Shown piece by piece: positions 1,687 through 15,833 of a stretch of 27,463 nt of DNA (positions are counted from its first letter, which is position 1; the number at the start of each line of letters is the position of its first letter). Location of the stretch: IMG/VR virus record IMGVR_UViG_2545824714_000008, one strand, 5' to 3'. The notes under the pieces were generated by a model that made no database searches, was not told where the DNA came from, and worked only from the letters and a program-made list of their open reading frames with translations. Source of the stretch: a virus (Duplodnaviria > Heunggongvirae > Uroviricota > Caudoviricetes). The translations under genes were made by a program, and so were the position numbers.

Positions 1687-2169
1687 ATGATAAAGCACCT
1701 GGTAGCACCCCTGGTTTTCACCTCACTAATACTGACTGGCTGCCAGTCCCCTCAGGGAAAGTTTACTCCTGAGCAAGTCGCCGCTATGCAATCTTATGGA
1801 TTTACTGAATCCGCCGGCGACTGGTCGCTGGGCTTATCAGATGCCATTCTGTTCGCAAAAAATGACTACAAATTGCTCCCGGAAAGCCAGCAACAGATCC
1901 AAACCATGGCAGCTAAATTGGCCTCGACAGGGCTAACACATGCCCGTATGGATGGACACACCGATAACTATGGTGAAGACAGTTACAACGAAGGCTTATC
2001 ATTGAAACGGGCGAATGTCGTGGCCGATGCATGGGCTATGGGTGGACAAATTCCACGCAGCAATCTCACCACACAGGGTTTAGGAAAAAAATATCCCATA
2101 GCCAGTAACAAGACCGCCCAGGGCCGCGCCGAGAACCGCCGCGTCGCAGTGGTGATTACTACCCCTTAA
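1687..2169 (+). CDS. yfiB: OmpA-family outer-membrane lipoprotein YfiB
   Basis: 160-aa ORF with a lipoprotein signal (LILTGC) and an OmpA-like C-terminus (NRRVAVVI), immediately downstream of dgcN. Confidence 0.92.
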   Translation: MIKHLVAPLVFTSLILTGCQSPQGKFTPEQVAAMQSYGFTESAGDWSLGLSDAILFAKNDYKLLPESQQQIQTMAAKLASTGLTHARMDGHTDNYGEDSYNEGLSLKRANVVADAWAMGGQIPRSNLTTQGLGKKYPIASNKTAQGRAENRRVAVVITTP

Positions 2170-2185
2170 AACACCAGCAAACAGA

Positions 2186-2216
2186 TAAAAAAGGGCCAGC
2201 CAATTGGCCAGCCCTT
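2186..2216. terminator. Hairpin after yfiB, possibly a bidirectional intrinsic terminator
   Basis: AAGGGC...GCCCTT stem with an inner GCC/GGC pair around AATT. It is flanked by an A5 run upstream, which gives a U-tract on the minus strand, and a short T-rich stretch downstream. Confidence 0.45.
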
Positions 2217-2486
2217 CTTAACAGGATGTCGCTTAAGCGAAATCTTAGTTAAGACGCTCCCAATAAAACCACATAAAAAACATATAATTATAATAAAAAC
2301 AATTAGTTAATTTAATTTTTAATGCAGTGAATTGCAATATTCTGCAACCTCCGCCGCCACTTTGCCGCCACTTAAAGCTTTATACCACACAGACTTTAGT
2401 ATACCCGAGTGAAACGCTAACACATGAGGTAGTTGGAAAATTTCCGTATATGTTGTAATATTGATACGCATTATATGATTTTTACC

Positions 2487-2495
2487 TGATATAAT
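2487..2495 (+). promoter_or_regulatory. Extended -10 element (TGaTATAAT), candidate promoter for the downstream orphan ORF
   Basis: TG-n-TATAAT at 2487..2495 in AT-rich DNA about 125 bp upstream of the GTG start at 2622. Confidence 0.35.
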
Positions 2496-2621
2496 GTAAT
2501 TATTAGCTTCAAAATTATTTTTGCACGAATCAGGTATTACCAAGTAGTTGTCAGTTTTTAAAAACCCAACATCCTAAAATTAGCATTGTTTTTTAACCAC
2601 AAAACATCCACGGAGAAGAAC

Positions 2622-3431
2622 GTGTCAAAAAAGGATACAATCCAGATTATCGATATCAGGATGCAGAGACCAATCATAGCAAGAATAGAAGAAGAAAATT
2701 TAAATTTGACATTGCAAATGTCAGATAAAGCCACATTATCTGGTGCGACAGTTAGTTTTTTCACCCCAAATAACGTTTCTATATTCTTATCCTCAGCAAA
2801 AAAAGAGCTCTCAAAATCCAATTCTATATATAAAAGTCTTTTTGGAAAAATACACAAAACCAAACATAAAAACTTTAAAATTTCCGACAAAGCCCTGCCG
2901 AGACTCTATAATTACTTTGAATCAATTCAGACGGCCATTATTTCTATGTATACTGCAATTGAGTCTTTTGCAAATATATGCATACCACATGATTATGTTT
3001 ATGAAAAAAACAATGCCAAGGGAATCAAAGAATCCTATAGCAAAGAGCTAATTGAGCGATATATACCAACAAGTGAAAAAATAGATAAAATCCTACCGTC
3101 TATTTTAAATTGTGATTCGCCTAAAGGTTCAAAACTATGGCAAGATTTTAAAAGCCTTGAGTCACTTAGAAATGACATAATTCACCCCAAGACAACAAAG
3201 AAAAACACAGAAACAAAAGAAGACTCATCTTTTTTATGCATTTTACTATCAGATGACTTTATAAAAAAAGTTTCCTGTGGATTTGATTTGGTATCTTATT
3301 TTTGCAAACAAGACACTACTCATAGTCTTTTCCCAATGGGTTTCGGTGAAATTGAACTTAAACCTGTCCCAATTAAAGCCGGTGACTTTGAAAAAGTTGA
3401 TGATCATGATGAAATAGAATTACCATCATAA
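2622..3431 (+). CDS. Hypothetical protein, low-GC orphan (about 269 aa from GTG 2622; the ORF opens at TTG 2586)
   Basis: Long uninterrupted ORF in markedly AT-rich DNA with GGAG 6 nt before GTG 2622. Contains an R-x4-H stretch (LRNDIIHPK). No family recognised. Confidence 0.6.
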   Translation: MSKKDTIQIIDIRMQRPIIARIEEENLNLTLQMSDKATLSGATVSFFTPNNVSIFLSSAKKELSKSNSIYKSLFGKIHKTKHKNFKISDKALPRLYNYFESIQTAIISMYTAIESFANICIPHDYVYEKNNAKGIKESYSKELIERYIPTSEKIDKILPSILNCDSPKGSKLWQDFKSLESLRNDIIHPKTTKKNTETKEDSSFLCILLSDDFIKKVSCGFDLVSYFCKQDTTHSLFPMGFGEIELKPVPIKAGDFEKVDDHDEIELPS

Positions 3432-6343: not shown

Positions 6344-6853
6344 ATGTTTGATTTTCAGGTTTCCAAACATCCCCACTATGACGAAGCATGCCGCATTTTC
6401 GCACAGCGTCACAATATGGCGAAGCTGGCCGAGCGTGCAGGTATGAACGTTCAAACGTTACGTAACAAGCTCAACCCGGAACAGCCTCACCAGTTCACGC
6501 CGTCTGAATTGTGGCTGCTGACTGACCTGACCGAAGACTCAACCCTCATTGATGGTTTTTTAGCGCAGATTCACTGCCTACCATGCGTGCCGGTTAATGA
6601 GTTGGCTAAAGACAAATTGCAGTCTTATGTCATGCGCGCAATGCGTGAACTCGGCGAACTGGCGAGCGGCGCGGTATCTGATGAACGTCTGACCATTGCC
6701 CGTAAGCACAACATGATTGAAAGCGTTAACTCCGGCATTCGCATGTTGTCATTGTCGGCTCTGGCTCTGCATGCACGTCTGCAGACTAATCCAGCTATGT
6801 CGAGCGTGGTCGATACCATGAGCGGTATTGGCGCATCGTTTGGTCTGATTTGA
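6344..6853 (+). CDS. cII: CII-like lysogeny-establishment regulator (186 CII family)
   Basis: From ATG 6344 (AGAGGGA 8 nt upstream) the product is 169 aa, the length of 186 CII. It follows the apl-like gene. Confidence 0.75.
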   Translation: MFDFQVSKHPHYDEACRIFAQRHNMAKLAERAGMNVQTLRNKLNPEQPHQFTPSELWLLTDLTEDSTLIDGFLAQIHCLPCVPVNELAKDKLQSYVMRAMRELGELASGAVSDERLTIARKHNMIESVNSGIRMLSLSALALHARLQTNPAMSSVVDTMSGIGASFGLI

Positions 6854-6860
6854 GGTGCGT

Positions 6861-7061
6861 ATGCTGAAAAGTGAACCGTCATTCGCATCTCTGCTCGTTA
6901 AGCAAAGCCCCGGCATGCACTACGGCCACGGCTGGATCGCAGGTAAGGACGGCAAGCGCTGGCACCCGAGCCACTCGCAGGCTGATTTACTGGCTGGCCT
7001 CTCTACTCAAAAGCGGGGGGGCTCATGGCTATCGAAGCTGTTTCCGCGACTGTTCCGCTAA
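6861..7061 (+). CDS. Small early-operon protein (position of 186 fil)
   Basis: 66-aa ORF from ATG 6861 with GAGG upstream. Its 3' end overlaps the next ORF, with a G7 tract at 7015..7021. Confidence 0.5.
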   Translation: MLKSEPSFASLLVKQSPGMHYGHGWIAGKDGKRWHPSHSQADLLAGLSTQKRGGSWLSKLFPRLFR

Positions 7062-7363
7062 AAGCGGGTGAACGTCTGGCCGGTCTCAATCATGTTGCCG
7101 AATTGCGCGCGAGATATTGGGGCGATAGCTGGAAAGAGGTTGAACGTTTTGTCGATGATATGCGCGATAAACGTGACCCACAATTTGAAGAAAATAATCG
7201 GGCGCTGGCCGCTATTTTCTTTCTGGCAAAAATACCGGCGGCTCGTCATGAACTCGAATTAAGTGAGCTGACTACTGACGAGAAAAAGGCGCTTATTACA
7301 GCGATGAATCATTTTCGTGCAGTAGTGAGCTTATTTCCCAAACGGCTAACCATGCCGAATTAA
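7025..7363 (+). CDS. Early-operon protein (position of 186 dhr)
   Basis: 112-aa ORF starting immediately after the G7 tract. Confidence 0.55.
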   Translation: MAIEAVSATVPLKAGERLAGLNHVAELRARYWGDSWKEVERFVDDMRDKRDPQFEENNRALAAIFFLAKIPAARHELELSELTTDEKKALITAMNHFRAVVSLFPKRLTMPN

Positions 7364-7430
7364 TCCAAACAGAAATTTAATGGCGTAAACCCGCCGGGCA
7401 TCTTATTGCCCGAAATCAGGAGAGTTAATT

Positions 7431-7658
7431 ATGCGTAATACCGAAATCCGTAGTTTTAACACTGATAGCGATGCGCTGGCCGTATTGCTGACCGATGCAA
7501 AAAAAGAAGAGCGTAAAGACCGCGCGCTCGCTGTTTCCATCCGCCTTGAGGCGCTGGCTATCCATATTACCAGAGAGGGAATGAGCGGCACCGAAGCTGC
7601 CGAACTGCTGCGCCGTGAAGCAACCCGCTTTGAGAATGAATCACAGGAGCTGCACTAA
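7431..7658 (+). CDS. Small hypothetical phage protein
   Basis: 75-aa ORF with GGAG upstream, directly abutting the next gene. Confidence 0.55.
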   Translation: MRNTEIRSFNTDSDALAVLLTDAKKEERKDRALAVSIRLEALAIHITREGMSGTEAAELLRREATRFENESQELH

Positions 7659-7879
7659 TGGCCGACGCAATGGATTTAGCACAACTGCGCGAGCAGGAAG
7701 ACCGCGAACGCCACATCAGCAACGCACGCACCCGTATCGCTGCACCTTCCCGTTTTCTTTGCGAGGAATGTGACGCACCAATCCCGGAAGCTCGCCGCAT
7801 TGCGATTCCGGGCGTGGCTTTTTGCGTAACCTGCCAGCAAATCGCAGAGCTAAAAAACAAACACTATCGGGGGGTATAA
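7658..7879 (+). CDS. TraR/DksA-type C4 zinc-finger protein
   Basis: 73 aa with CEEC...x17...CVTC spacing, immediately upstream of gene A as in P2/186. Confidence 0.75.
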   Translation: MADAMDLAQLREQEDRERHISNARTRIAAPSRFLCEECDAPIPEARRIAIPGVAFCVTCQQIAELKNKHYRGV

Positions 7880-7880
7880 A

Positions 7881-10103
7881 TTGGCTGTTCAATTCGCTTA
7901 TCCGTGGAACGTCCCACGGTCGGCAATCTCCAGCCCATACCTTACTTATGAGCAACAGCATCGCCGCGACCGTATGTTCGCGGCTTTGCTGCATGCAAAA
8001 AAGGGGCTTTCTCTCCAGCCCGACTGCGTGCGGTTAGATGTTTATCGCACTGCTGCGGTGCTGGAACAAAATCAGGGTAGTAAACGAGCCAATGCATTTT
8101 TAATCAGCTTCTGCAAAAAGGCATTGCCGCGTCTTGAACTGGTCGCAAAAAAATACGAATGCGCTGGTATCAACAGCAAGGTATCAACCGCTGTTTTTGG
8201 AAGTCATTTTGATACTCAGCAAATGCAATATCTGTCGTCACGCATGGTTAATATGGTCGCCCGATATAACCGTCTCCCGGACATGTCGCGCGCTGATGTT
8301 GACCTGTTGGCCGCTGATATTGCTAATTTCATTCGTGGTGAACTTGCCAACATTAATGACCACGGATTCGGCGAGCTTAAAACGCTGTACACCTGGTATA
8401 TTCGTGCTGGCTTTATTTCCCTCCAATTCAACGTTATCCCACCACATTGGGAGCGGGTTGAAAAAAAATATGTCGGTGCGGATGAAATCGCACCGGCTAT
8501 CGCCAAAATGTTTAACGATGGGTGGTGGCGCGGTCGTTTGCGCCGTGTAGCAGCTACGTGGCGCGAACACCTGCAAATTGCAGTCGGCAACGTCAGTAAG
8601 AAAAAAAACACTTACGCGAGTAAAAACTGCGTGACTGACTGGCGTGAACAAAAGCGCCGCACTCGTGAATTTCTCAAAGGTCTGGATCTCGAAGACGAAG
8701 ACGGCAACCGTATCAGCCTAATTGAAAAATATGATGGCTCAGTTGCTAACCCTGCGATTCGCCGCTGTGAGCTCATGACCCGCATTCGTGGGTTTGAAAA
8801 CATCTGTAATGAGCTCGGTTATGTCGGTGAGTTTTACACTCTAACCGCGCCGTCAAAATATCACGCCACGACTAAAGCCGGTTACCGTAACAGCAAATGG
8901 AGCGGTGCCAGCCCGGCTGACACGCAAAACTATCTAACCGGTATCTGGGCGCGTATCCGTGCCAAACTACATCGGGAAGATGTCCGTATTTTCGGTATTC
9001 GTGTCGCCGAGCCCCATCACGACGGCACTCCACACTGGCACATGCTGATGTTCATGCTGCCGGAAGATGTTGAATATGTTCGCTCCATCGTCCGTAAATA
9101 CGCATGGAAAGAAGACCGCCACGAACTGAAAAGCGATAAATCCCAAAAAGCACGTTTCCACGCGGAGTCCATTGACCCGGAGAAAGGCAGCGCAACCGGC
9201 TATGTTGCTAAATACATTTCAAAAAATATCGACGGTTATGCTCTCGATGGTGAAACCGATGATGAAAGCGGTGAGCTGCTGAAAGAGACAGCCCCCGCCG
9301 TTTCAGCATGGGCTGCGCGCTGGCACATCCGTCAGTTTCAGTTTATTGGTGGTGCGCCGGTGACGGTTTACCGTGAGTTGCGTCGCCTCGCTGATACCGA
9401 AACCGCGCACGGTCTGAGCGTTGAGTTTGCCGCCGTCCATGATGCCGCCGACGCTGGTGACTGGGCTGGTTATGTTAATGCTCAGGGTGGGCCGTTTGTC
9501 CGTCGCGATGATTTACAGGTGCGCACACTGTATGAACCGCGTACCGAGCTTAATCAGTACGGTGAGGAAACGGTATGTATTAAGGGGGTCTACGATTCCT
9601 CCATAGGTGCAGGAAGCCCGATTTTAACCCGGCTCACTCAGTGGAAGATTGTTCCGAAGCGTGCTGTTGATTTGGCCGTTGACCTTCAGGACGGCAAAGC
9701 CGTCCCTCGGAGTTCTGTCAATAACTGTACGGGAAGCGAAAGCGATCCACCGATACTGGATTTAACAAAACCACTGAGTCGGCGTGAAAGACGAGAATTG
9801 ACCAACCTACTCAGGAAGCAAAAGCCAGCAGCACGGCGAAAATTCATCCACGGAACGGATGAGCAAAACGCAGCTATAGCTAAAACTATCGATGAGATAC
9901 ATCTGACAACCGGCATTAATATCAGCCGGGGCGAAGCCCTGCACCTGATGGCCGGTGGTAAAAGTTGTTTTGATGGTAAATGGCTACGCGGAACGGCCAA
10001 AGGAGAAATATTTTCCGCAGCACCATCGCATGAGGCTAAAGCTCGGAAAATCCTTAATCGTGTTGCGGCGATGGCTGAAGCATCAAAACCAATACATGAG
10101 TAA
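7881..10103 (+). CDS. A: Rolling-circle replication initiation protein (P2 gpA family)
   Basis: 740 aa containing EPHHDGTPHWHMLMF and GYVAKYISKNIDGYALDG, matching P2 A motifs as recalled. TTG start with GGGGGT upstream. Confidence 0.9.
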   Translation: MAVQFAYPWNVPRSAISSPYLTYEQQHRRDRMFAALLHAKKGLSLQPDCVRLDVYRTAAVLEQNQGSKRANAFLISFCKKALPRLELVAKKYECAGINSKVSTAVFGSHFDTQQMQYLSSRMVNMVARYNRLPDMSRADVDLLAADIANFIRGELANINDHGFGELKTLYTWYIRAGFISLQFNVIPPHWERVEKKYVGADEIAPAIAKMFNDGWWRGRLRRVAATWREHLQIAVGNVSKKKNTYASKNCVTDWREQKRRTREFLKGLDLEDEDGNRISLIEKYDGSVANPAIRRCELMTRIRGFENICNELGYVGEFYTLTAPSKYHATTKAGYRNSKWSGASPADTQNYLTGIWARIRAKLHREDVRIFGIRVAEPHHDGTPHWHMLMFMLPEDVEYVRSIVRKYAWKEDRHELKSDKSQKARFHAESIDPEKGSATGYVAKYISKNIDGYALDGETDDESGELLKETAPAVSAWAARWHIRQFQFIGGAPVTVYRELRRLADTETAHGLSVEFAAVHDAADAGDWAGYVNAQGGPFVRRDDLQVRTLYEPRTELNQYGEETVCIKGVYDSSIGAGSPILTRLTQWKIVPKRAVDLAVDLQDGKAVPRSSVNNCTGSESDPPILDLTKPLSRRERRELTNLLRKQKPAARRKFIHGTDEQNAAIAKTIDEIHLTTGINISRGEALHLMAGGKSCFDGKWLRGTAKGEIFSAAPSHEAKARKILNRVAAMAEASKPIHE

Positions 10104-10177
10104 TTCATATCCATATCATGCACATACAGCAATCGCTCTATTCGTTTTTTTTCTTCCCATCTTTTGCCAATACGTGC

Positions 10178-10197
10178 TACTGTATAAATATACAGTA
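10178..10197 (+). promoter_or_regulatory. LexA (SOS) box overlapping a promoter, upstream of a small-ORF operon
   Basis: TACTGTATAAATATACAGTA is a perfect CTGT-N8-ACAG box with an AT-rich spacer, about 20 bp upstream of the ATG at 10217. Confidence 0.8.
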
Positions 10198-10216
10198 ACC
10201 CTGTGGGAGGGATTTC

Positions 10217-10399
10217 ATGGTTGGCGAACATTTCAGCCGAACGCAGCAAAAGTGGGCTTGTGTGCAATTTATTGCCGAGGTATCTCTGATTGCAAACTGC
10301 AAGCCATCAGACTTAAAGCTCGCGCTCACTCTCATTGCAGACCTAGCAAACAGCGAGAATAACGAAACCGAAGATGATAATTTTTATAAGGCTGATTAG
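10217..10399 (+). CDS. Small SOS-regulated protein (candidate Tum-like antirepressor function)
   Basis: 60-aa ORF with GGGAGGG upstream, directly downstream of the LexA box. Confidence 0.55.
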   Translation: MVGEHFSRTQQKWACVQFIAEVSLIANCKPSDLKLALTLIADLANSENNETEDDNFYKAD

Positions 10400-10402
10400 A
10401 TT

Positions 10403-10636
10403 ATGAGAATCAATATCACGTTGGATAAAGAGCAAAAAATTAGTCAGGCAACATTGGATGCACTTGAGGCTGAACTGTACCGCAATCTTCAACCTATTTA
10501 CCCAAAGACTGCTATCCGAATTCGCAAGGGCTCCGCTAATGGCGTTGAACTAAGCGGTTTGAAACTGGACGAAGATAAAAAACGAGTAATGGAAATCATG
10601 CAGCAGGTATGGGAGGACGATAGCTGGCTGCATTAA
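10403..10636 (+). CDS. Small hypothetical phage protein
   Basis: 77-aa ORF, 3 nt after the preceding stop, followed immediately by repeat copy 1. Confidence 0.55.
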   Translation: MRINITLDKEQKISQATLDALEAELYRNLQPIYPKTAIRIRKGSANGVELSGLKLDEDKKRVMEIMQQVWEDDSWLH

Positions 10637-10638
10637 CA

Positions 10639-10707
10639 AACGCCGCCGGTGCTGAAACTTGCTTTCAGTGCTGGCGGGGTTGAACAACTCGCACCGCGAG
10701 GCGCTAG
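10639..10707 (+). repeat. 69-bp structured repeat, copy 1 (imperfect dyad CCGCC..CTGAAA / TTTCAG..GGCGG)
   Basis: About 86% identical to 11044..11112 and starts 2 nt after a stop codon. Confidence 0.7.
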
Positions 10708-10831
10708 TTCTTCCTCTCAAAGTTTCTCGATGTTTTATTGGTTACACACCAGTGATGAATGGGACGTTACCTTAGCGGGTTTTATAGTGGCGCTGTGGCA
10801 GCGCTAAATAAAATTCATTGAGGGCGATAAT

Positions 10832-11041
10832 ATGCATCGACTACCGGGCGAAATTCCGCAGCACAAAACTAAAAGCATCAAACTGATGGCCATCGTTCAT
10901 CGTCTGCAGCAGATAATGGTCAATGAGAATTTGACACCCGCCGAGCTGGTCGGGTGTGCCGAAATAGTCAGGGATAATTACGGCAAGCTGGATAGCATCA
11001 GCAAGCCGACACATTACTCACCGCCACCACGTCGACCATAG
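10832..11041 (+). CDS. Small hypothetical phage protein
   Basis: 69-aa ORF with GAGGG upstream, followed immediately by repeat copy 2. Confidence 0.55.
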   Translation: MHRLPGEIPQHKTKSIKLMAIVHRLQQIMVNENLTPAELVGCAEIVRDNYGKLDSISKPTHYSPPPRRP

Positions 11042-11043
11042 AT

Positions 11044-11112
11044 AACGCCGCCGGAGCTGAAACTCGCTTTCAGGTCTGGCGGGGTTGAACAACGAGCTAC
11101 GCGAGGCGTTAG
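11044..11112 (+). repeat. 69-bp structured repeat, copy 2
   Basis: Same dyad as copy 1 and starts 2 nt after the stop codon. Confidence 0.7.
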
Positions 11113-11174
11113 CCGGTCATAGCGTCGCAAATACTTCAACCGTCTGCTGGTTAAATAATTCGAGGTTTTTGGAC

Positions 11175-11369
11175 ATGCAAAATCCCCTTTCATCGAAAAA
11201 TGACCCGTTTGCCGATTGGGCAAAGAATCTGACTTTAATGGCTTTAAATAACGACCTGAGCTCTCGCGAGGTGGAAAGCTACACCGCAAAAATGGTCGGG
11301 CAGGCCGGTAAAGATGAGCTATCAGTCGTTATCAAACACCTGTTAAATCACATCAGAATGCGCAAATAA
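11175..11369 (+). CDS. Small hypothetical phage protein (ATG 11175; the ORF opens at TTG 11085 inside repeat 2)
   Basis: GAGG about 9 nt before ATG 11175, giving 64 aa. Confidence 0.45.
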   Translation: MQNPLSSKNDPFADWAKNLTLMALNNDLSSREVESYTAKMVGQAGKDELSVVIKHLLNHIRMRK

Positions 11370-11385
11370 GAGGAACTATATAAAT

Positions 11386-11487
11386 ATGTTATCTCTCGTT
11401 TATGAAAATCCGTGGACGACGATTTTTCTGATGATTGTTGCCAGCATGTGCCTCAACAGTGTTATTGGCGCATTGCGCGGCCATTAA
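11386..11487 (+). CDS. 33-aa hydrophobic peptide (MLSLVYENPWTTIFLMIVASMCLNSVIGALRGH)
   Basis: AAGAGGAA about 10 nt upstream of the ATG, one predicted transmembrane-like segment, followed by a strong terminator. Below the 60-aa cutoff of the ORF track. Confidence 0.4.
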   Translation: MLSLVYENPWTTIFLMIVASMCLNSVIGALRGH

Positions 11488-11506
11488 TCGCGACAAAACC
11501 AGACTA

Positions 11507-11535
11507 AAACCGGCACCCTGAATGCCGGTTTTTTT
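11507..11535 (+). terminator. Rho-independent terminator ending the early/SOS operon
   Basis: 9-bp stem AAACCGGCA / TGCCGGTTT with loop CCCTGAA, followed by a T7 run. Confidence 0.8.
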
Positions 11536-11695
11536 ATGCCATTTTTCCGCGAATTTCCCGTTTTTTAGTCGTGCATGCATCAGGTGCATGGTTTTGCATG
11601 CGTCAGTCTTGCCCGTTCTGTCCGTGCGCCGCCAGAGCTAGCGCGGATCCAGAGTTGTCATGCAACTGCATTAAAACCGCCCCATAAAGCGGGCA

Positions 11696-11714
11696 GGCGT
11701 GGCGGGGAAAGCAT
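11696..11714. other. cos site (19-nt cohesive-end sequence of 186/P2 type)
   Basis: GGCGTGGCGGGGAAAGCAT matches the 186 cohesive end as I recall it (P2: GGCGAGGCGGGGAAAGCAC). Lies between the replication and portal sides as expected in a prophage. Confidence 0.7.
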
Positions 11715-11933
11715 TGCGCGCCAGCAGTGATGCGTAATAATAAAAATTATCCTCTGAGCGCGTCGTGATGGCGCTGTCGTGGTCGCTGCTGGTTCGTTGG
11801 TGGTCGAGTGTGTTCGTGCGCGTGAGACGCATCTGATGCGTGATGGTGGTGTGCATGGAAAAGCCACCAGGAGCAGCGGCTTTACAGGAGTGGCAGGATT
11901 CAAACTGCTAATTATGTTTCTACTATGATTAAA

Positions 11934-12938
11934 CTAATTTACATGTATGTAGAGTTCACCGTCGCCAGACCAATCGGGACACTCTAAAACAAGCCCAAAC
12001 TGCTTGAATATTTCATCAATGATTATTGTTATCTCCCGAAAATCACCAAAACCTGTAATGTGCTGGTCATTAAACTTCCCATAAAGATTCTGAAAAGCAA
12101 TGCCTAATTCTGATAATTGATATCTTATCTTTGAGTTGGATAGTGTAAGGGATAGCTTTGGATCGTATTCTTTAATATTGATGTTTAGAGAATGGACATA
12201 ACCCATCGCATAAGCATAAGAGTTGATGATTAGCCTGATACGTTTTTTTACTTCAAGATACATGTCATTCAGAGAAATATTACCGTACTTATAACCCCAG
12301 ATGAGTTTTTCAATCTCGTCAGATACTTCATTTACAACAGTGTCAAGATTCTCTAAAAATAAATCGACAGTTTCTTGAGGGGCAGACCCCGAAGACATGT
12401 AATTAGCGAGATATTCAGACCATGCACGCGTGGCTGAGATAAGAAGCGCGCTACCATACTCGTTGACTGTAAAGTTTTGGGCTAAGCATGTTAGTAAGTT
12501 TTTTTCATGTACGTGCACTAATTCATGGTGAATGCGATGGATGACTGCGAGGTATCCTTCTTCTTTCAGTTTTAAGAAGCTACCATCATTGAAAAGCTCA
12601 ACAAAAAAATCAATCGATAGCACAAGGGTATATTCTTCATATAGCCCATCATTGCCAATTTTTGTTACTAACTGCCCGACGGCTGCGCCCTGTTTGCTAT
12701 TGGTAAATGAACTAGGGGATTTGTGTTGGTAAGAGGATGTTACCTTTTGAAGAGCTTCACTGAAGTTATAGGAAACAATCACGCATTTTAATTTGGAGAT
12801 ATCAAGATTGAGATTCTTTGTTAAAGCTCGGATAGCTTCTAGTGTGAAATTACCGATATTATTTGCTTCTTGCTCAGTAGCGAAACCTTCGAGGGTTATT
12901 TTAAAATCAGTTTCCAAAATATTAATCTCCGCGCCCAT
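11934..12938 (-). CDS. Orphan 334-aa protein in a low-GC insertion between cos and the portal gene (candidate accessory/defence gene)
   Basis: Uninterrupted ORF in AT-rich DNA, co-oriented with portal and terminase. Contains an HHELVH (HExxH-like) stretch and no obvious membrane segments. No Shine-Dalgarno evident. Confidence 0.65.
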   Translation of the reverse strand: MGAEINILETDFKITLEGFATEQEANNIGNFTLEAIRALTKNLNLDISKLKCVIVSYNFSEALQKVTSSYQHKSPSSFTNSKQGAAVGQLVTKIGNDGLYEEYTLVLSIDFFVELFNDGSFLKLKEEGYLAVIHRIHHELVHVHEKNLLTCLAQNFTVNEYGSALLISATRAWSEYLANYMSSGSAPQETVDLFLENLDTVVNEVSDEIEKLIWGYKYGNISLNDMYLEVKKRIRLIINSYAYAMGYVHSLNINIKEYDPKLSLTLSNSKIRYQLSELGIAFQNLYGKFNDQHITGFGDFREITIIIDEIFKQFGLVLECPDWSGDGELYIHVN

Positions 12939-13015
12939 TGTTTTGATATTCGATGCACTATAGCTTTCGCAGATTGCATCTTCAATAATGAGCGCAGAGA
13001 TTGTGGCGGCCTAAG

Positions 13016-14062
13016 TTATTCTGGGTTGTCGAGGGTGTACTCTTTGAATCTGATGACCTCCATGCCGAGCCAGTCATTTACCTCCCTGAACCTGTCCTGT
13101 AGCGGCGACAGCTCGTTGCGCACAAATACCTTTGCCACCTTCTCAACATCACCGAGTGAACCGATATTCTCGGGCTTGCCGCCCATGAGCTGGAACGGTA
13201 CGCGGTGCGCGTCCATCAGATCGGCGGCACTGGCCTTCTTGATGTTGAAAAAGTCATCCTTTGTGGCGACCTCGCTCAGTGGCACGATTTTGATGCCGTC
13301 CGGTTTTCCGCCGGGAGCGTAGAAAAACAGGTTCTTAAAGTTGCCGAGCCCTTTTGAGTTGCGCATCGCCTCGCGCAGCGATTCGACGTCGGTCGCGCTC
13401 TGCGCCGGGTCAGTCACATACATGATGTAGCCTGCGTGCGCGCCGTTCTGATAATACTTGCGGCGGAACAGCGTCGCGGATTCATTCAGCCAAGCGGAAT
13501 TAAGCGCGCTGAGATATTCCGGCAGACCGTAAATCTCCTGATTAATGTCGGGCTCCAGCAGGTGAAACACGGTATCAGGCGCGAACTCGTGCGGCTGGGT
13601 GAAGTTTTCCACAAACCAGAAAATCGAATCGTCGACTCCGCGTCGGGGGTATTTGGCTGGCGAGGCCAGCAGTTTGATTAACTGGCCGGTGACGCTGTGG
13701 CGCTGCTCAAGAAAGGCGTTACCGAACACCAGATAATCGAGCGCAAAGCGGCTGAAATCCTGACGGGATAACAACGGGTGCGGAATGTAGGTGCTCGCGA
13801 GCACGTTACGCTTAACATAAATTGGCGAGCTGTGATGCACGGCAGAGCGCAGGCTCTTTGCCAGCCCTGAGAAGCTGACCGGCGGCTCGTACCATTTGCC
13901 GTTACTGATGCACTCGACGTAATCCAGAATGTCGCGCTTATCGAGTACCGGCACCGGCTCGCCGAAGGTGAACGCTGTCGTTTTTGGCGGTGCGCTGGCG
14001 GTCAGTTGTTGTGGTTTGCTGGCCTTTTGTGCGTTGGCTTTACGGGATTTTTGTTTACCCAT
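13016..14062 (-). CDS. Q: Portal protein (P2 gpQ family)
   Basis: 348 aa (P2 Q is about 344 aa), adjacent to and co-oriented with the large terminase and next to cos. Confidence 0.9.
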   Translation of the reverse strand: MGKQKSRKANAQKASKPQQLTASAPPKTTAFTFGEPVPVLDKRDILDYVECISNGKWYEPPVSFSGLAKSLRSAVHHSSPIYVKRNVLASTYIPHPLLSRQDFSRFALDYLVFGNAFLEQRHSVTGQLIKLLASPAKYPRRGVDDSIFWFVENFTQPHEFAPDTVFHLLEPDINQEIYGLPEYLSALNSAWLNESATLFRRKYYQNGAHAGYIMYVTDPAQSATDVESLREAMRNSKGLGNFKNLFFYAPGGKPDGIKIVPLSEVATKDDFFNIKKASAADLMDAHRVPFQLMGGKPENIGSLGDVEKVAKVFVRNELSPLQDRFREVNDWLGMEVIRFKEYTLDNPE

Positions 14063-14063
14063 T

Positions 14064-15833
14064 TTAGTTGAACTCCAGAATAGATTTAGGCTGCATGCCG
14101 CTACCGGCAGAAAGCGGTTCGTTTAACAGGGCGTGCATGGTCGCCCATGCGATATCGGCGTGGCTGGCTTCCTCGGTGCGGCTGGCCTCATAGGTGGCGC
14201 AGCGCCCGCTGCTGGTCATGGTTTTGCGGATGGACATAAACGACTGCGTGACGTCGGTTGCTCCGGCGTCGTACTCCAGACAGCCACGGCGAATGGTGTC
14301 TTTCGCCTTGAGTACCATTGCGGTTTTCATTTCAGGTGTGTAACGGATGCCGCGTGCCGCCGGGTAAAATGAGCGCACCAGCTGGAACACGCCGAGACCG
14401 AGGCCGGTTGCGTCAATGCCGATGTATTCGACGTTGTATTTCTCGGTCAGCTTGCGGATGCCCTCTGCCTGTGCTGCAAAATCCATGCCCTTCCACTGGT
14501 GGCGCTCCAGCATGCGGAACTTGCCACCAGAGACCACCGGCGGCGCGAGCACGACGCACCCGGCACTGTCGCCGGTGTGTGACGGGTCGTAGCCAATCCA
14601 GACAGGACGAGAGCCGAACGGATGGTCGGCGAACGGGGCAAAGTCCTCCCATTCCTCCATCACATCGACCATGCAGCGCTGCAGCTCCTCGAACGGGAAT
14701 ACCGACGCTTTATCGTCGACAAACTCGCACATAAACAGGTTCTTAAAGTCCTCATCACTGTTTTCGCGTTTGAGCTGGTCGAGGTCGAACAGGGTGCAGC
14801 CACCCGCAAGGGCGTCCTCAATGGTGACAATCTGCCGCCACTGGCCATCGTCGCAGAGCTGGCCACCGGCGAGCGCGCTGTGACTGATGTCGATTTCGAT
14901 GCGGTCGGCAATCCGGCTGCGCCCCTTGTTGAACAGCTCGCCAGACCAGAAGGGGTAAGCGCCGTGCGCCAGCGTGGAAGGTGTCGAAAAATAGGTCGAG
15001 CGCAGGTGCTTTTGCGAGGCCATGCCCGAGGCGACTTTGCGCAGTTTCTGAAAATTCGGGATCCAGAATATTTCATCGACATACAGATCGCCGTTATGGC
15101 TCTGCGCGGTGTTGGAATTGGTACCGAGAAAAATCAGTTTTGCGCCGTTGTTACCGATGACAATCGGGTCGCCAGTCAGGTCAACGTCGACCAGTCGCGC
15201 AAACTGGATGATGTATTCGCGGAACACGTAAGCCTGCGTTTTACTGGCTGATAAAAATATCTGGTTATGGCCGGTTTTGAGTGCGCGCAGCAGTGCCTCG
15301 CGGGAGAAATAGAATGTCGCGCCAATCTGGCGGGATTTGAGAATGTCACGAATACGGTGCTCCAGTCCTGCGCGGTACCACTGCAACTGGTACTCGAAAG
15401 ACTGGTCGAAAAATAATTCCTCTAGTTTATCGATAGCCTCGTCGCTGAAAAAATTCTTTTTCGGCTTTTTGCGCTCCCCTTTGTTGCGGTTGGCGACGTT
15501 GGGGTTAAGGTCGGCTTCGTTGCCGGTCTGGCTGTAGCGGTTGACTCGCGCCAACCGTTCAATCTGCCGTCCGAGCAGGTCAATCTCTTTGAAATCACCC
15601 CCTGTCTTTTGCGGCTTGGCGATGAGCTGAATCAGCCTGGCCTCAAGGCTGCTTTCAACGCGGGAAATCGGCGCGATGCCGTCCCAGCCGTCGCGCTGCT
15701 TCCAGCTCTGCACGGTCGGGCGCTTGACCTGCAGCATTTCGGCAATCTGTGGCACGGAAAAACCCTGCCAGTAAAGCAGCGATGCCTGCCGTCGCGGGTC
15801 ATGCAACAAGGTTGTATCGGTGGAAATGGTCAT
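14064..15833 (-). CDS. P: Terminase large (ATPase) subunit (P2 gpP family)
   Basis: 589 aa (P2 P is about 590 aa), divergent from the scaffold gene. Confidence 0.9.
   Translation of the reverse strand: MTISTDTTLLHDPRRQASLLYWQGFSVPQIAEMLQVKRPTVQSWKQRDGWDGIAPISRVESSLEARLIQLIAKPQKTGGDFKEIDLLGRQIERLARVNRYSQTGNEADLNPNVANRNKGERKKPKKNFFSDEAIDKLEELFFDQSFEYQLQWYRAGLEHRIRDILKSRQIGATFYFSREALLRALKTGHNQIFLSASKTQAYVFREYIIQFARLVDVDLTGDPIVIGNNGAKLIFLGTNSNTAQSHNGDLYVDEIFWIPNFQKLRKVASGMASQKHLRSTYFSTPSTLAHGAYPFWSGELFNKGRSRIADRIEIDISHSALAGGQLCDDGQWRQIVTIEDALAGGCTLFDLDQLKRENSDEDFKNLFMCEFVDDKASVFPFEELQRCMVDVMEEWEDFAPFADHPFGSRPVWIGYDPSHTGDSAGCVVLAPPVVSGGKFRMLERHQWKGMDFAAQAEGIRKLTEKYNVEYIGIDATGLGLGVFQLVRSFYPAARGIRYTPEMKTAMVLKAKDTIRRGCLEYDAGATDVTQSFMSIRKTMTSSGRCATYEASRTEEASHADIAWATMHALLNEPLSAGSGMQPKSILEFN

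Follow-up and report, generated by a model that had tools for sequence, protein, structure and literature searches.

A low-GC cassette beside cos in a 186-like prophage encodes a predicted zinc metallopeptidase and candidate anti-phage factor

The cargo hotspot next to the cohesive-end site (cos) of a 186-like prophage contains a block of foreign DNA that is best explained as a horizontally acquired single-gene cassette. The prophage is part of the IMG/VR virus record IMGVR_UViG_2545824714_000008 (Caudoviricetes), a stretch of 27,463 nucleotides that was analysed at its full length and is referred to as the window. Its genes for CI, CII, Fil, the replication endonuclease, DinI, portal, terminase, GpO and the capsid identify the element as 186-like (Peduoviridae). 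The block covers positions 11870..13015 and carries one gene (11934..12938, minus strand), here called the cargo gene. Its product is, with good confidence, a zinc metallopeptidase that belongs to a so far undescribed family, with zinc binding and peptidase activity predicted from residue conservation and a structural model. For the proposed role as a single-gene anti-phage factor we see an even chance; the location, the genes around distant homologues and the fusion to another domain in two relatives point in this direction.

The borders of the foreign block were defined by alignment to phage 186. The 19-mer of cos, GGCGTGGCGGGGAAAGCAT, has a single exact match in the window (11696..11714, plus strand; 0 expected by chance), is identical to nucleotides 1-19 of phage 186 and is annotated as cos in U32222, in line with the original prediction. 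The same prediction had let the insertion begin directly behind cos and extend over 11715..13015, which proved too wide: positions 11715..11869 (GC content 0.555) are conserved DNA of the cos flank and belong to the phage backbone outside the insertion. Altogether, 11696..11869 aligns with nucleotides 1-175 of phage 186 at 86% identity, and homology restarts exactly at the stop codon of the portal gene (13016, nucleotide 196 of phage 186) at 94% identity. The 1,146 bp between these breakpoints have a GC content of 0.381, compared to 0.556 for the portal gene, and stand in place of about 20 bp between the terminator tW and the portal stop codon. Flanking direct or inverted repeats were not found around the block, and the insertion thus bears no mark of a transposon or an att-type site. 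A search for Rfam families in 10000..13300 was likewise negative.

Downstream of the cargo gene, a hairpin followed by a T-run at 11860..11883 (minus strand) corresponds to tW of the portal operon in phage 186. It includes a terminator-like site at 11877..11863 (minus strand) with a stem of 9 bp according to RNAfold, and its left arm shares homology with tW as annotated in phage 186 (nucleotides 164-187). The hairpin looks like a hybrid, in which the cos-side arm is homologous to tW of phage 186, the homology breaks off at 11869 within the loop, and the insert contributes the second arm. Because the homology ends in the loop and the second arm consists of inserted DNA, the recombination joint may lie inside this terminator.

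The original description of the cargo open reading frame (ORF) as single, clean, AT-rich and co-oriented with portal and terminase agrees with our data. The ORF list contains a single frame of 334 codons at 11934..12938 on the minus strand, with a GC content of 0.376 and a third-position GC content of 0.364, against 0.556 and 0.705 in the portal gene. The portal gene itself, the homologue of 186 W and P2 Q, occupies 13016..14062 on the minus strand with its stop codon starting at 13016 and lies next to the co-oriented terminase gene (14064..15833); the NCBI Prokaryotic Genome Annotation Pipeline (PGAP) lists the portal gene product as 'phage portal protein' (WP_000517961.1), and alignment of the portal gene with the 3' end of 186 W showed 94% identity. 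By our own arithmetic, an open frame of 334 codons would occur in DNA of 38% GC with a chance probability of about 1e-10. The ratio of nonsynonymous to synonymous substitution rates (dN/dS) was 0.24 in comparison to the Salmonella orthologue, 0.31 for Citrobacter, 0.10 for Yersinia and 0.06 for Enterobacter, and the ORF is therefore a real gene under purifying selection. Three plus-strand ORFs (12532..12732, 12793..12963 and 12870..13322) were rejected as antisense noise, with all of the conservation residing in the minus-strand frame.

The same data bear on the idea that the gene has lost its function in this prophage and is a passenger in decay. Truncated forms of 113 amino acids (aa; WP_000500607.1) and 106 aa exist on 40 and 18 contigs, respectively (clusters P0084, P0086), and PHROGs 28537 and 30021 represent the N- and C-terminal halves of the protein, and the gene therefore appears to be split or frameshifted in some prophages. 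These copies would fit decay. Against it stand the intact frame in the window, the low dN/dS values towards Salmonella, Enterobacter and Yersinia and the wide distribution of the full-length form, for which the two Salmonella clusters P0010 and P0011 are each present on at least 1,000 contigs. We consider decay highly improbable.

Translation probably starts at the TTG codon at 12917, giving 327 aa, instead of the ATG at 12938, from which 334 aa would result. This start is suggested by a GGAG Shine-Dalgarno motif read from the sequence at 12927..12930 (minus strand), 9 nt before the TTG, by the homologues, which mostly begin at an M-E-x-D equivalent to the TTG start, by PGAP, which places the start of the identical E. 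coli locus at this codon, and by residues 1-7 of the longer form, which have a predicted local distance difference test (pLDDT) value of <50 and are the sole disordered part of the AlphaFold2 model. No Shine-Dalgarno motif was found before the ATG at 12938, and a related copy in Enterobacter ludwigii (locus L011) has GAGGA at the position equivalent to GGAG.

The protein had been introduced as an orphan, a description that did not hold. A word-indexed search returned a family of 78 clusters at 90% identity from Enterobacterales, Vibrionales and Alteromonadales, which extends down to 42% identity and in which all members are annotated as hypothetical. The genera recovered were Escherichia, Salmonella, Citrobacter, Klebsiella, Serratia, Pectobacterium, Yersinia, Enterobacter, Kosakonia, Shewanella and Psychromonas. 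An exhaustive profile search with E-values up to 1e-3 widened this to a superfamily of about 350 clusters at 50% identity, whose representatives are nearly all single-domain proteins of 305-340 aa. Repeating the word-indexed search with a profile of 77 sequences recovered the close family and added nothing.

A stretch noticed earlier as HExxH-like, HHELVH (residues 137-142, 12513..12530), is, judging from conservation and the model, a genuine zincin motif that is invariant in the family and accompanied by a conserved putative third ligand and a gluzincin fold. HExxH occurs once in the protein, as H138-E139-L-V-H142 (12513..12527, minus strand) on the helix of residues 126-148, where it would serve as zinc-binding and catalytic motif. 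Among 77 relatives at about 20% identity, H138 is kept in 76 and both E139 and H142 in all 77. The second conserved element is a 'glutamate helix' (residues 160-185) with the sequence W173-S-E175-Y-L-A178-N179 (12402..12422, minus strand), in which E175 is the putative third zinc ligand (kept in 76 of the 77; A178 in 75 and W173 in 71). Besides HExxH, W173, E175 and A178, almost nothing but two glycines is conserved across these relatives. A closer set of 28 sequences, down to 41% identity, is invariant at H137, H138, E139, H142, E145 and N147 and in W173-S-E175-Y-x-A178-N179. The context of E175 (S-E-Y-L-A-N) parallels the motif NExxSD of thermolysin (N-E-A-I-S-D) as well as NEGFA of the M1 peptidases.

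The AlphaFold2 model of the protein reached a pLDDT of 90.2 and a predicted template modelling score of 0.89. It consists of a beta-sheet subdomain (residues 13-108), the two helices with the putative zinc ligands (126-148 and 160-185), a helical bundle (188-313) and a short C-terminal hairpin. The beta-sheet subdomain together with the two ligand helices matches the fold of a thermolysin-like catalytic domain. In comparisons with known structures, each covering about 175 aligned residues, the model scored 8.1 with lugdulysin (M30), 8.0 with 3cmn, a putative hydrolase, 7.7 with collagenases (M9), 7.7 with LTA4 hydrolase and 6.6 with thermolysin. Foldseek searches of the PDB and BFVD gave nothing significant, with an entry named 'Peptidase' as the best BFVD match (E-value 9.5e-3). 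Profile scans of the protein with Pfam, NCBIfam and PADLOC were without matches, PHROG 11743 ('unknown function') was the only matching profile, and searches of PDB sequences with the family profiles yielded chance coiled-coil matches only. The motif strings and the PHROG identifier were not found in any of the papers searched either. As had been anticipated, the protein has no membrane segment (maximum Kyte-Doolittle mean over 19 residues: 1.19), and it is predicted to be a soluble cytoplasmic gluzincin-type protein of about 37 kDa. A secreted toxin was ruled out, given that both a signal peptide and a membrane segment are missing.

Compared to the gluzincins of clan MA(E) (M1, thermolysin M4, M30, M9), the protein shares 10-13% identity and no match at the level of sequence profiles. 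It has no GAMEN exopeptidase motif of the M1 type, no signal peptide and no propeptide, and it is set apart by its C-terminal helical bundle and an additional His/Asp cluster, HxxHHExxHxH[DE]. The spacing from H142 to E175 amounts to 32 residues, and the ligand spacing in M1 peptidases and thermolysin is shorter than this.

In outline, the cargo protein resembles Lit (Peptidase U49) of the cryptic prophage e14. Lit is the precedent for a protease of this kind; it aborts infection by cleaving EF-Tu and is triggered by a T4 capsid peptide. Both proteins are prophage-borne, encoded by a single gene, cytoplasmic and about 300 aa long, and both contain HExxH in a similar local context (ILHHEISHV in Lit, RIHHELVHV in the cargo protein). 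Membership in the Lit family was nevertheless rejected: an hhalign comparison of the 77-sequence profile with Lit of E. coli K-12 gave a probability of 14.7% over 19 columns at HHExxHV only, and Pfam Peptidase_U49 did not match. The same gpA-cos-gpQ hotspot houses old and tin of P2, two accessory genes for phage exclusion with products unrelated to the cargo protein. On the P2 map they lie on the gpA side of cos; the cargo gene is on the portal side, inside the portal operon.

ImmA/IrrE proteins (Peptidase M78) are likewise HExxH zincins on prophages and mobile elements, and Peptidase_M78 genes are listed for the P2 hotspot in Table S5A of PMC9122126. This assignment was also rejected, given that no Pfam M78 match was obtained at E-values up to 1 and no helix-turn-helix (HTH) gene is adjacent in the window or in locus L001; the cargo protein is moreover larger and has a different C-terminal domain. 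In a broader alternative, the zincin-fold protein would benefit the lysogen in a way unrelated to phages, as an ImmA/IrrE-like stress or regulatory protease, a toxin-like growth regulator or a mainly non-catalytic binder. Consistent with this are the partition systems and the cytolethal distending toxin carried by the P2 hotspot (PMC9122126), the housekeeping neighbours of some homologues, one fusion relative without the catalytic residues and the weak BFVD matches, which include IrrE-like, WLM and SprT-like proteins. The HTH repressor partner expected for ImmA/IrrE modules is not adjacent, however, the absence of a signal peptide or membrane segment speaks against a secreted virulence factor, and 76-77 of 77 relatives retain the catalytic residues. 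We regard such a role as rather unlikely.

The arrangement of the cassette suggests two routes of expression. The cargo gene sits between the portal stop codon and the tW-like hairpin in the same orientation as portal, and a terminator between the portal stop codon and the gene was not found; late portal transcripts should therefore read into it. In addition, a consensus scan of the inserted DNA identified a sigma-70-like promoter at 12957..12985 (minus strand; TTGAAG, 17 nt, TATAGT), 40 nt upstream of the TTG at 12917. This promoter-like site is kept in the Salmonella and Citrobacter copies. The E. ludwigii copy, which is located in an integrase/resolvase island outside any phage, has TTGAGG-17-TATAGT at the same distance of 40 nt. 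As the putative promoter is kept in this copy despite saturated synonymous divergence, expression in the lysogen from the cassette's own predicted promoter is plausible.

The position in the late unit raises the alternative that the protease serves the lytic cycle of the phage itself and acts, as the product of the last gene of the late terminase-portal transcript, during virion production. It could degrade a host defence or stress protein (anti-defence), remodel the host or act against P4-type satellites that hijack the same capsids. This reading agrees with the location of the gene between the portal stop codon and the tW-like terminator with none in between, and with its constant co-orientation with portal in the P2-like prophages of E. 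coli, Salmonella, Citrobacter and Yersinia, of which the Yersinia copy has no promoter-like site of its own. It also agrees with the other cargo found at this site, which is encoded outside the operon in convergent orientation to portal. On the other hand, the gene stands alone in islands without phage structural genes (Enterobacter L011, Colwellia L023, Psychromonas L004, Vibrio L020), and a promoter-like site with unchanged spacing to the start codon is found outside phages as well. Most 186/P2-like phages do not have the gene, and it is thus dispensable for phage growth. A lytic role appears improbable to us on this evidence.

The view that the surroundings of cos form a classical accessory locus was well founded, since the gpA-cos-gpQ interval is a published anti-phage hotspot of P2 (PMC9122126). 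In the window, the A homologue ends at 10103, cos starts at 11696 and the portal stop codon lies at 13016, and the content of this interval varies among related prophages. Rousset et al. (2022; PMC9122126) described 18,150 P2-hotspot loci with 1,650 arrangements and 169 curated systems; three of eight newly cloned P2-hotspot systems were active, and the hotspot also carries non-defence cargo in the form of partition systems and a cytolethal distending toxin. In a 2026 preprint, six of eight randomly chosen unknown loci of the P4 hotspot protected. The cargo protein, with few substitutions, is essentially the P2-hotspot system #76 of Table S5B in PMC9122126, where it is treated as a single-gene system from the same hotspot of E. 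coli P2-like prophages, with 51 occurrences and without Pfam domain, signal peptide, transmembrane segment or notes. The entry has no name; our analysis contributes the identification as a metallopeptidase, the precise point of insertion and the larger family around the protein.

The cargo gene is, as had been supposed, not a core gene of P2/186 phages. It is absent from phages 186, PSP3, SEN1 and EtG and present in 26 of 5,426 complete E. coli genomes, corresponding to 26 of 253 matching genomes. The portal stop codon is 195 nt from cos in all four of these phages, and many P2-like phages of Yersinia and Klebsiella likewise have the two flanks adjacent. Its absence from 186, PSP3 and most relatives ruled out a virion or housekeeping role. 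vB_EcoM-613R3 is the only deposited phage that carries the gene. In Salmonella, the gene is common in P2-like prophages at the same site, 218 nt from cos, and a diverged P2-like prophage of Yersinia enterocolitica has a copy of 58% identity after portal and ogr.

Prophages with a portal protein identical to WP_000517961.1 were found with an empty site and with other cargo. One of them encodes an nSTAND1 NTPase of 405 aa (L030 3834..5051, plus strand; GC content 0.37) with a weak match to PADLOC PDC-S59, another a DUF2188 protein (L031 2826..3137, plus strand) that matches the PADLOC candidate PDC-S16. In both loci, as in phage 186, the tW hairpin stays beside the portal stop codon and the cargo lies beyond tW on the opposite strand, convergent with portal, whereas the cargo gene of the window is inside the portal operon.

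Outside P2-like prophages, the relatives occur as lone cassettes in variable regions. In Psychromonas marina (L004/L022), the neighbours are HsdR of a type I restriction-modification system, a DUF4357 gene, VspR with a helicase and Endonuclease_NS. The homologue in Colwellia psychrerythraea (L023) is flanked by a full Shedu SduA and a TIR-like gene (PDC-S35/PycTIR-like) at 2023..3201 and 6654..7799; SduA is about 5 kb away (E-value 1.4e-152). The TIR-like gene is divergently adjacent, and for this reason it could form a two-gene unit with the homologue in the Colwellia lineage. A Bacillus relative with 24% identity (L028) has AbiO/Nhi at a distance of about 3 kb (E-value 7e-185). Further neighbours are a DpdF-like helicase and a second helicase in an Alteromonadaceae metagenome-assembled genome (L018), a reverse transcriptase and a weak PDC-S32 match in Vibrio (L020), a mad3-like gene in Shewanella marisflavi (L024), NERD and CSD-Excalibur genes followed by housekeeping genes in another Shewanella (L003) and a YafO toxin in Kosakonia (L005), at the edge of an HP1/P2-like prophage. 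Of the 13 non-E. coli loci, a small sample taken without background control, roughly half lie within about 5.5 kb of a known or candidate defence gene, and the link to defence genes is accordingly suggestive.

Two distant relatives, P0167 (597 aa) and P0234 (591 aa), combine an N-terminal DUF2971/PDC-S31 domain with the whole zincin module. DUF2971 proteins are ADP-ribosyltransferase-like and similar to DarT and AbiGi (PMC12522546), and Aristaios, a single DUF2971 protein, is a validated abortive-infection system (PMC11381338). The connection to the cargo protein is by fusion in these two remote relatives only; the window protein itself has no DUF2971 domain. DUF2971 genes are also found in P2 hotspots. 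P0234 keeps HHELAH and WDEY, and P0167 has HRELGH and WDAY, corresponding to the exchanges H138 to R and E175 to A. As P0167 has lost both residues, the zincin module may, in certain contexts, be used for binding or sensing.

Within the favoured explanation of a cassette with an anti-phage function, the protein would comprise four predicted parts, namely an N-terminal alpha/beta subdomain, the helix with H138-E139-x-x-H142, the helix with E175 and the C-terminal helical bundle. The sigma-70 promoter that the cassette appears to bring along would drive its production in the lysogen, and, owing to the position of the gene upstream of the portal-operon terminator, it would also be made late in induction by read-through from the portal operon. 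The enzyme would be latent until infection by another phage, when it would cleave an essential host or phage protein and so abort the infection, as Lit of prophage e14 does with EF-Tu. Promoter use, anti-phage function and an abortive mechanism are what we infer from the features described above.

Several points weigh against this explanation. PADLOC has no model for the protein, its sequence is not in the table of cloned systems in PMC9122126, and no experimental record was found in our search. The neighbours at Shewanella L003, Kosakonia L005 and Psychromonas L019 are housekeeping or unremarkable genes, and the association with defence genes elsewhere, drawn from a small sample, is suggestive. 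Co-orientation with portal and the position in the late unit fit a late-lytic function at least as well, and H138 and E175 are missing from one member of the pair of DUF2971 fusion proteins. A further-reaching idea, which we offer tentatively and consider doubtful in its entirety, is that the protein would found a new family of zinc proteases that each act as a single protein against phages and apply the principle of Lit without homology to Lit. The C-terminal helical domain would then sense a phage product, whereupon an essential translation or replication factor would be cleaved. The wiring to the late operon would make the protein present both in the lysogen and during the phage's own burst, and the DUF2971 fusions would reuse the module as a sensor arm.

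The gpA side of the hotspot (10103..11695) contains small ORFs only. These are a homologue of DinI (10403..10636), an ORF of 60 aa (10217..10399), whose counterpart in vB_EcoM-613R3 is annotated as 'UV induction of prophage', and two ORFs at 10832..11041 and 11085..11369, for the latter of which PGAP annotates a shorter ORF. PADLOC matches were not obtained among the scanned ORFs of this side. In vB_EcoM-613R3, an additional hypothetical gene of 313 aa (L002 6481..7422) is located on the gpA side of cos. As this phage has the cargo gene together with an extra gpA-side gene that the window lacks, the two sides of the hotspot appear to vary independently. An ORF of 61 aa at 11671..11856 (minus strand), annotated by PGAP as hypothetical protein WP_000557532.1, is probably a spurious call, because it would be severed at cos in the linear phage genome. 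It overlaps the cos 19-mer and the conserved cos flank, and no gene is annotated there in phage 186. A near-identical member of its 90% cluster is named 'YvpB' by one source.

The type of locus was already known, and the gene had been catalogued without annotation as system #76. New are the assignment as an enzyme, a sizeable family without a Pfam, NCBIfam or PADLOC profile, the exact placement of the insertion with respect to the terminator, the other alleles found at the site and the associations with defence islands and ADP-ribosyltransferase-like fusions. The practical value is modest, in that one more well-characterised candidate is added to the many in the P2 hotspot. To our knowledge, the list of stand-alone metalloprotease abortive-infection systems is very short, and for decades Lit has stood as its textbook example. 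Should the cargo protein prove to be an active protease against phages, it would be a second system of this kind, evolved independently of Lit. The position in the late operon raises the question whether the cargo of this hotspot is always defence expressed in the lysogen, or whether some of it serves the lytic cycle of the phage. Under the same condition of an active anti-phage protease, a family of about 350 clusters that has no Pfam, NCBIfam or PADLOC model would gain a name and a testable catalytic mechanism.

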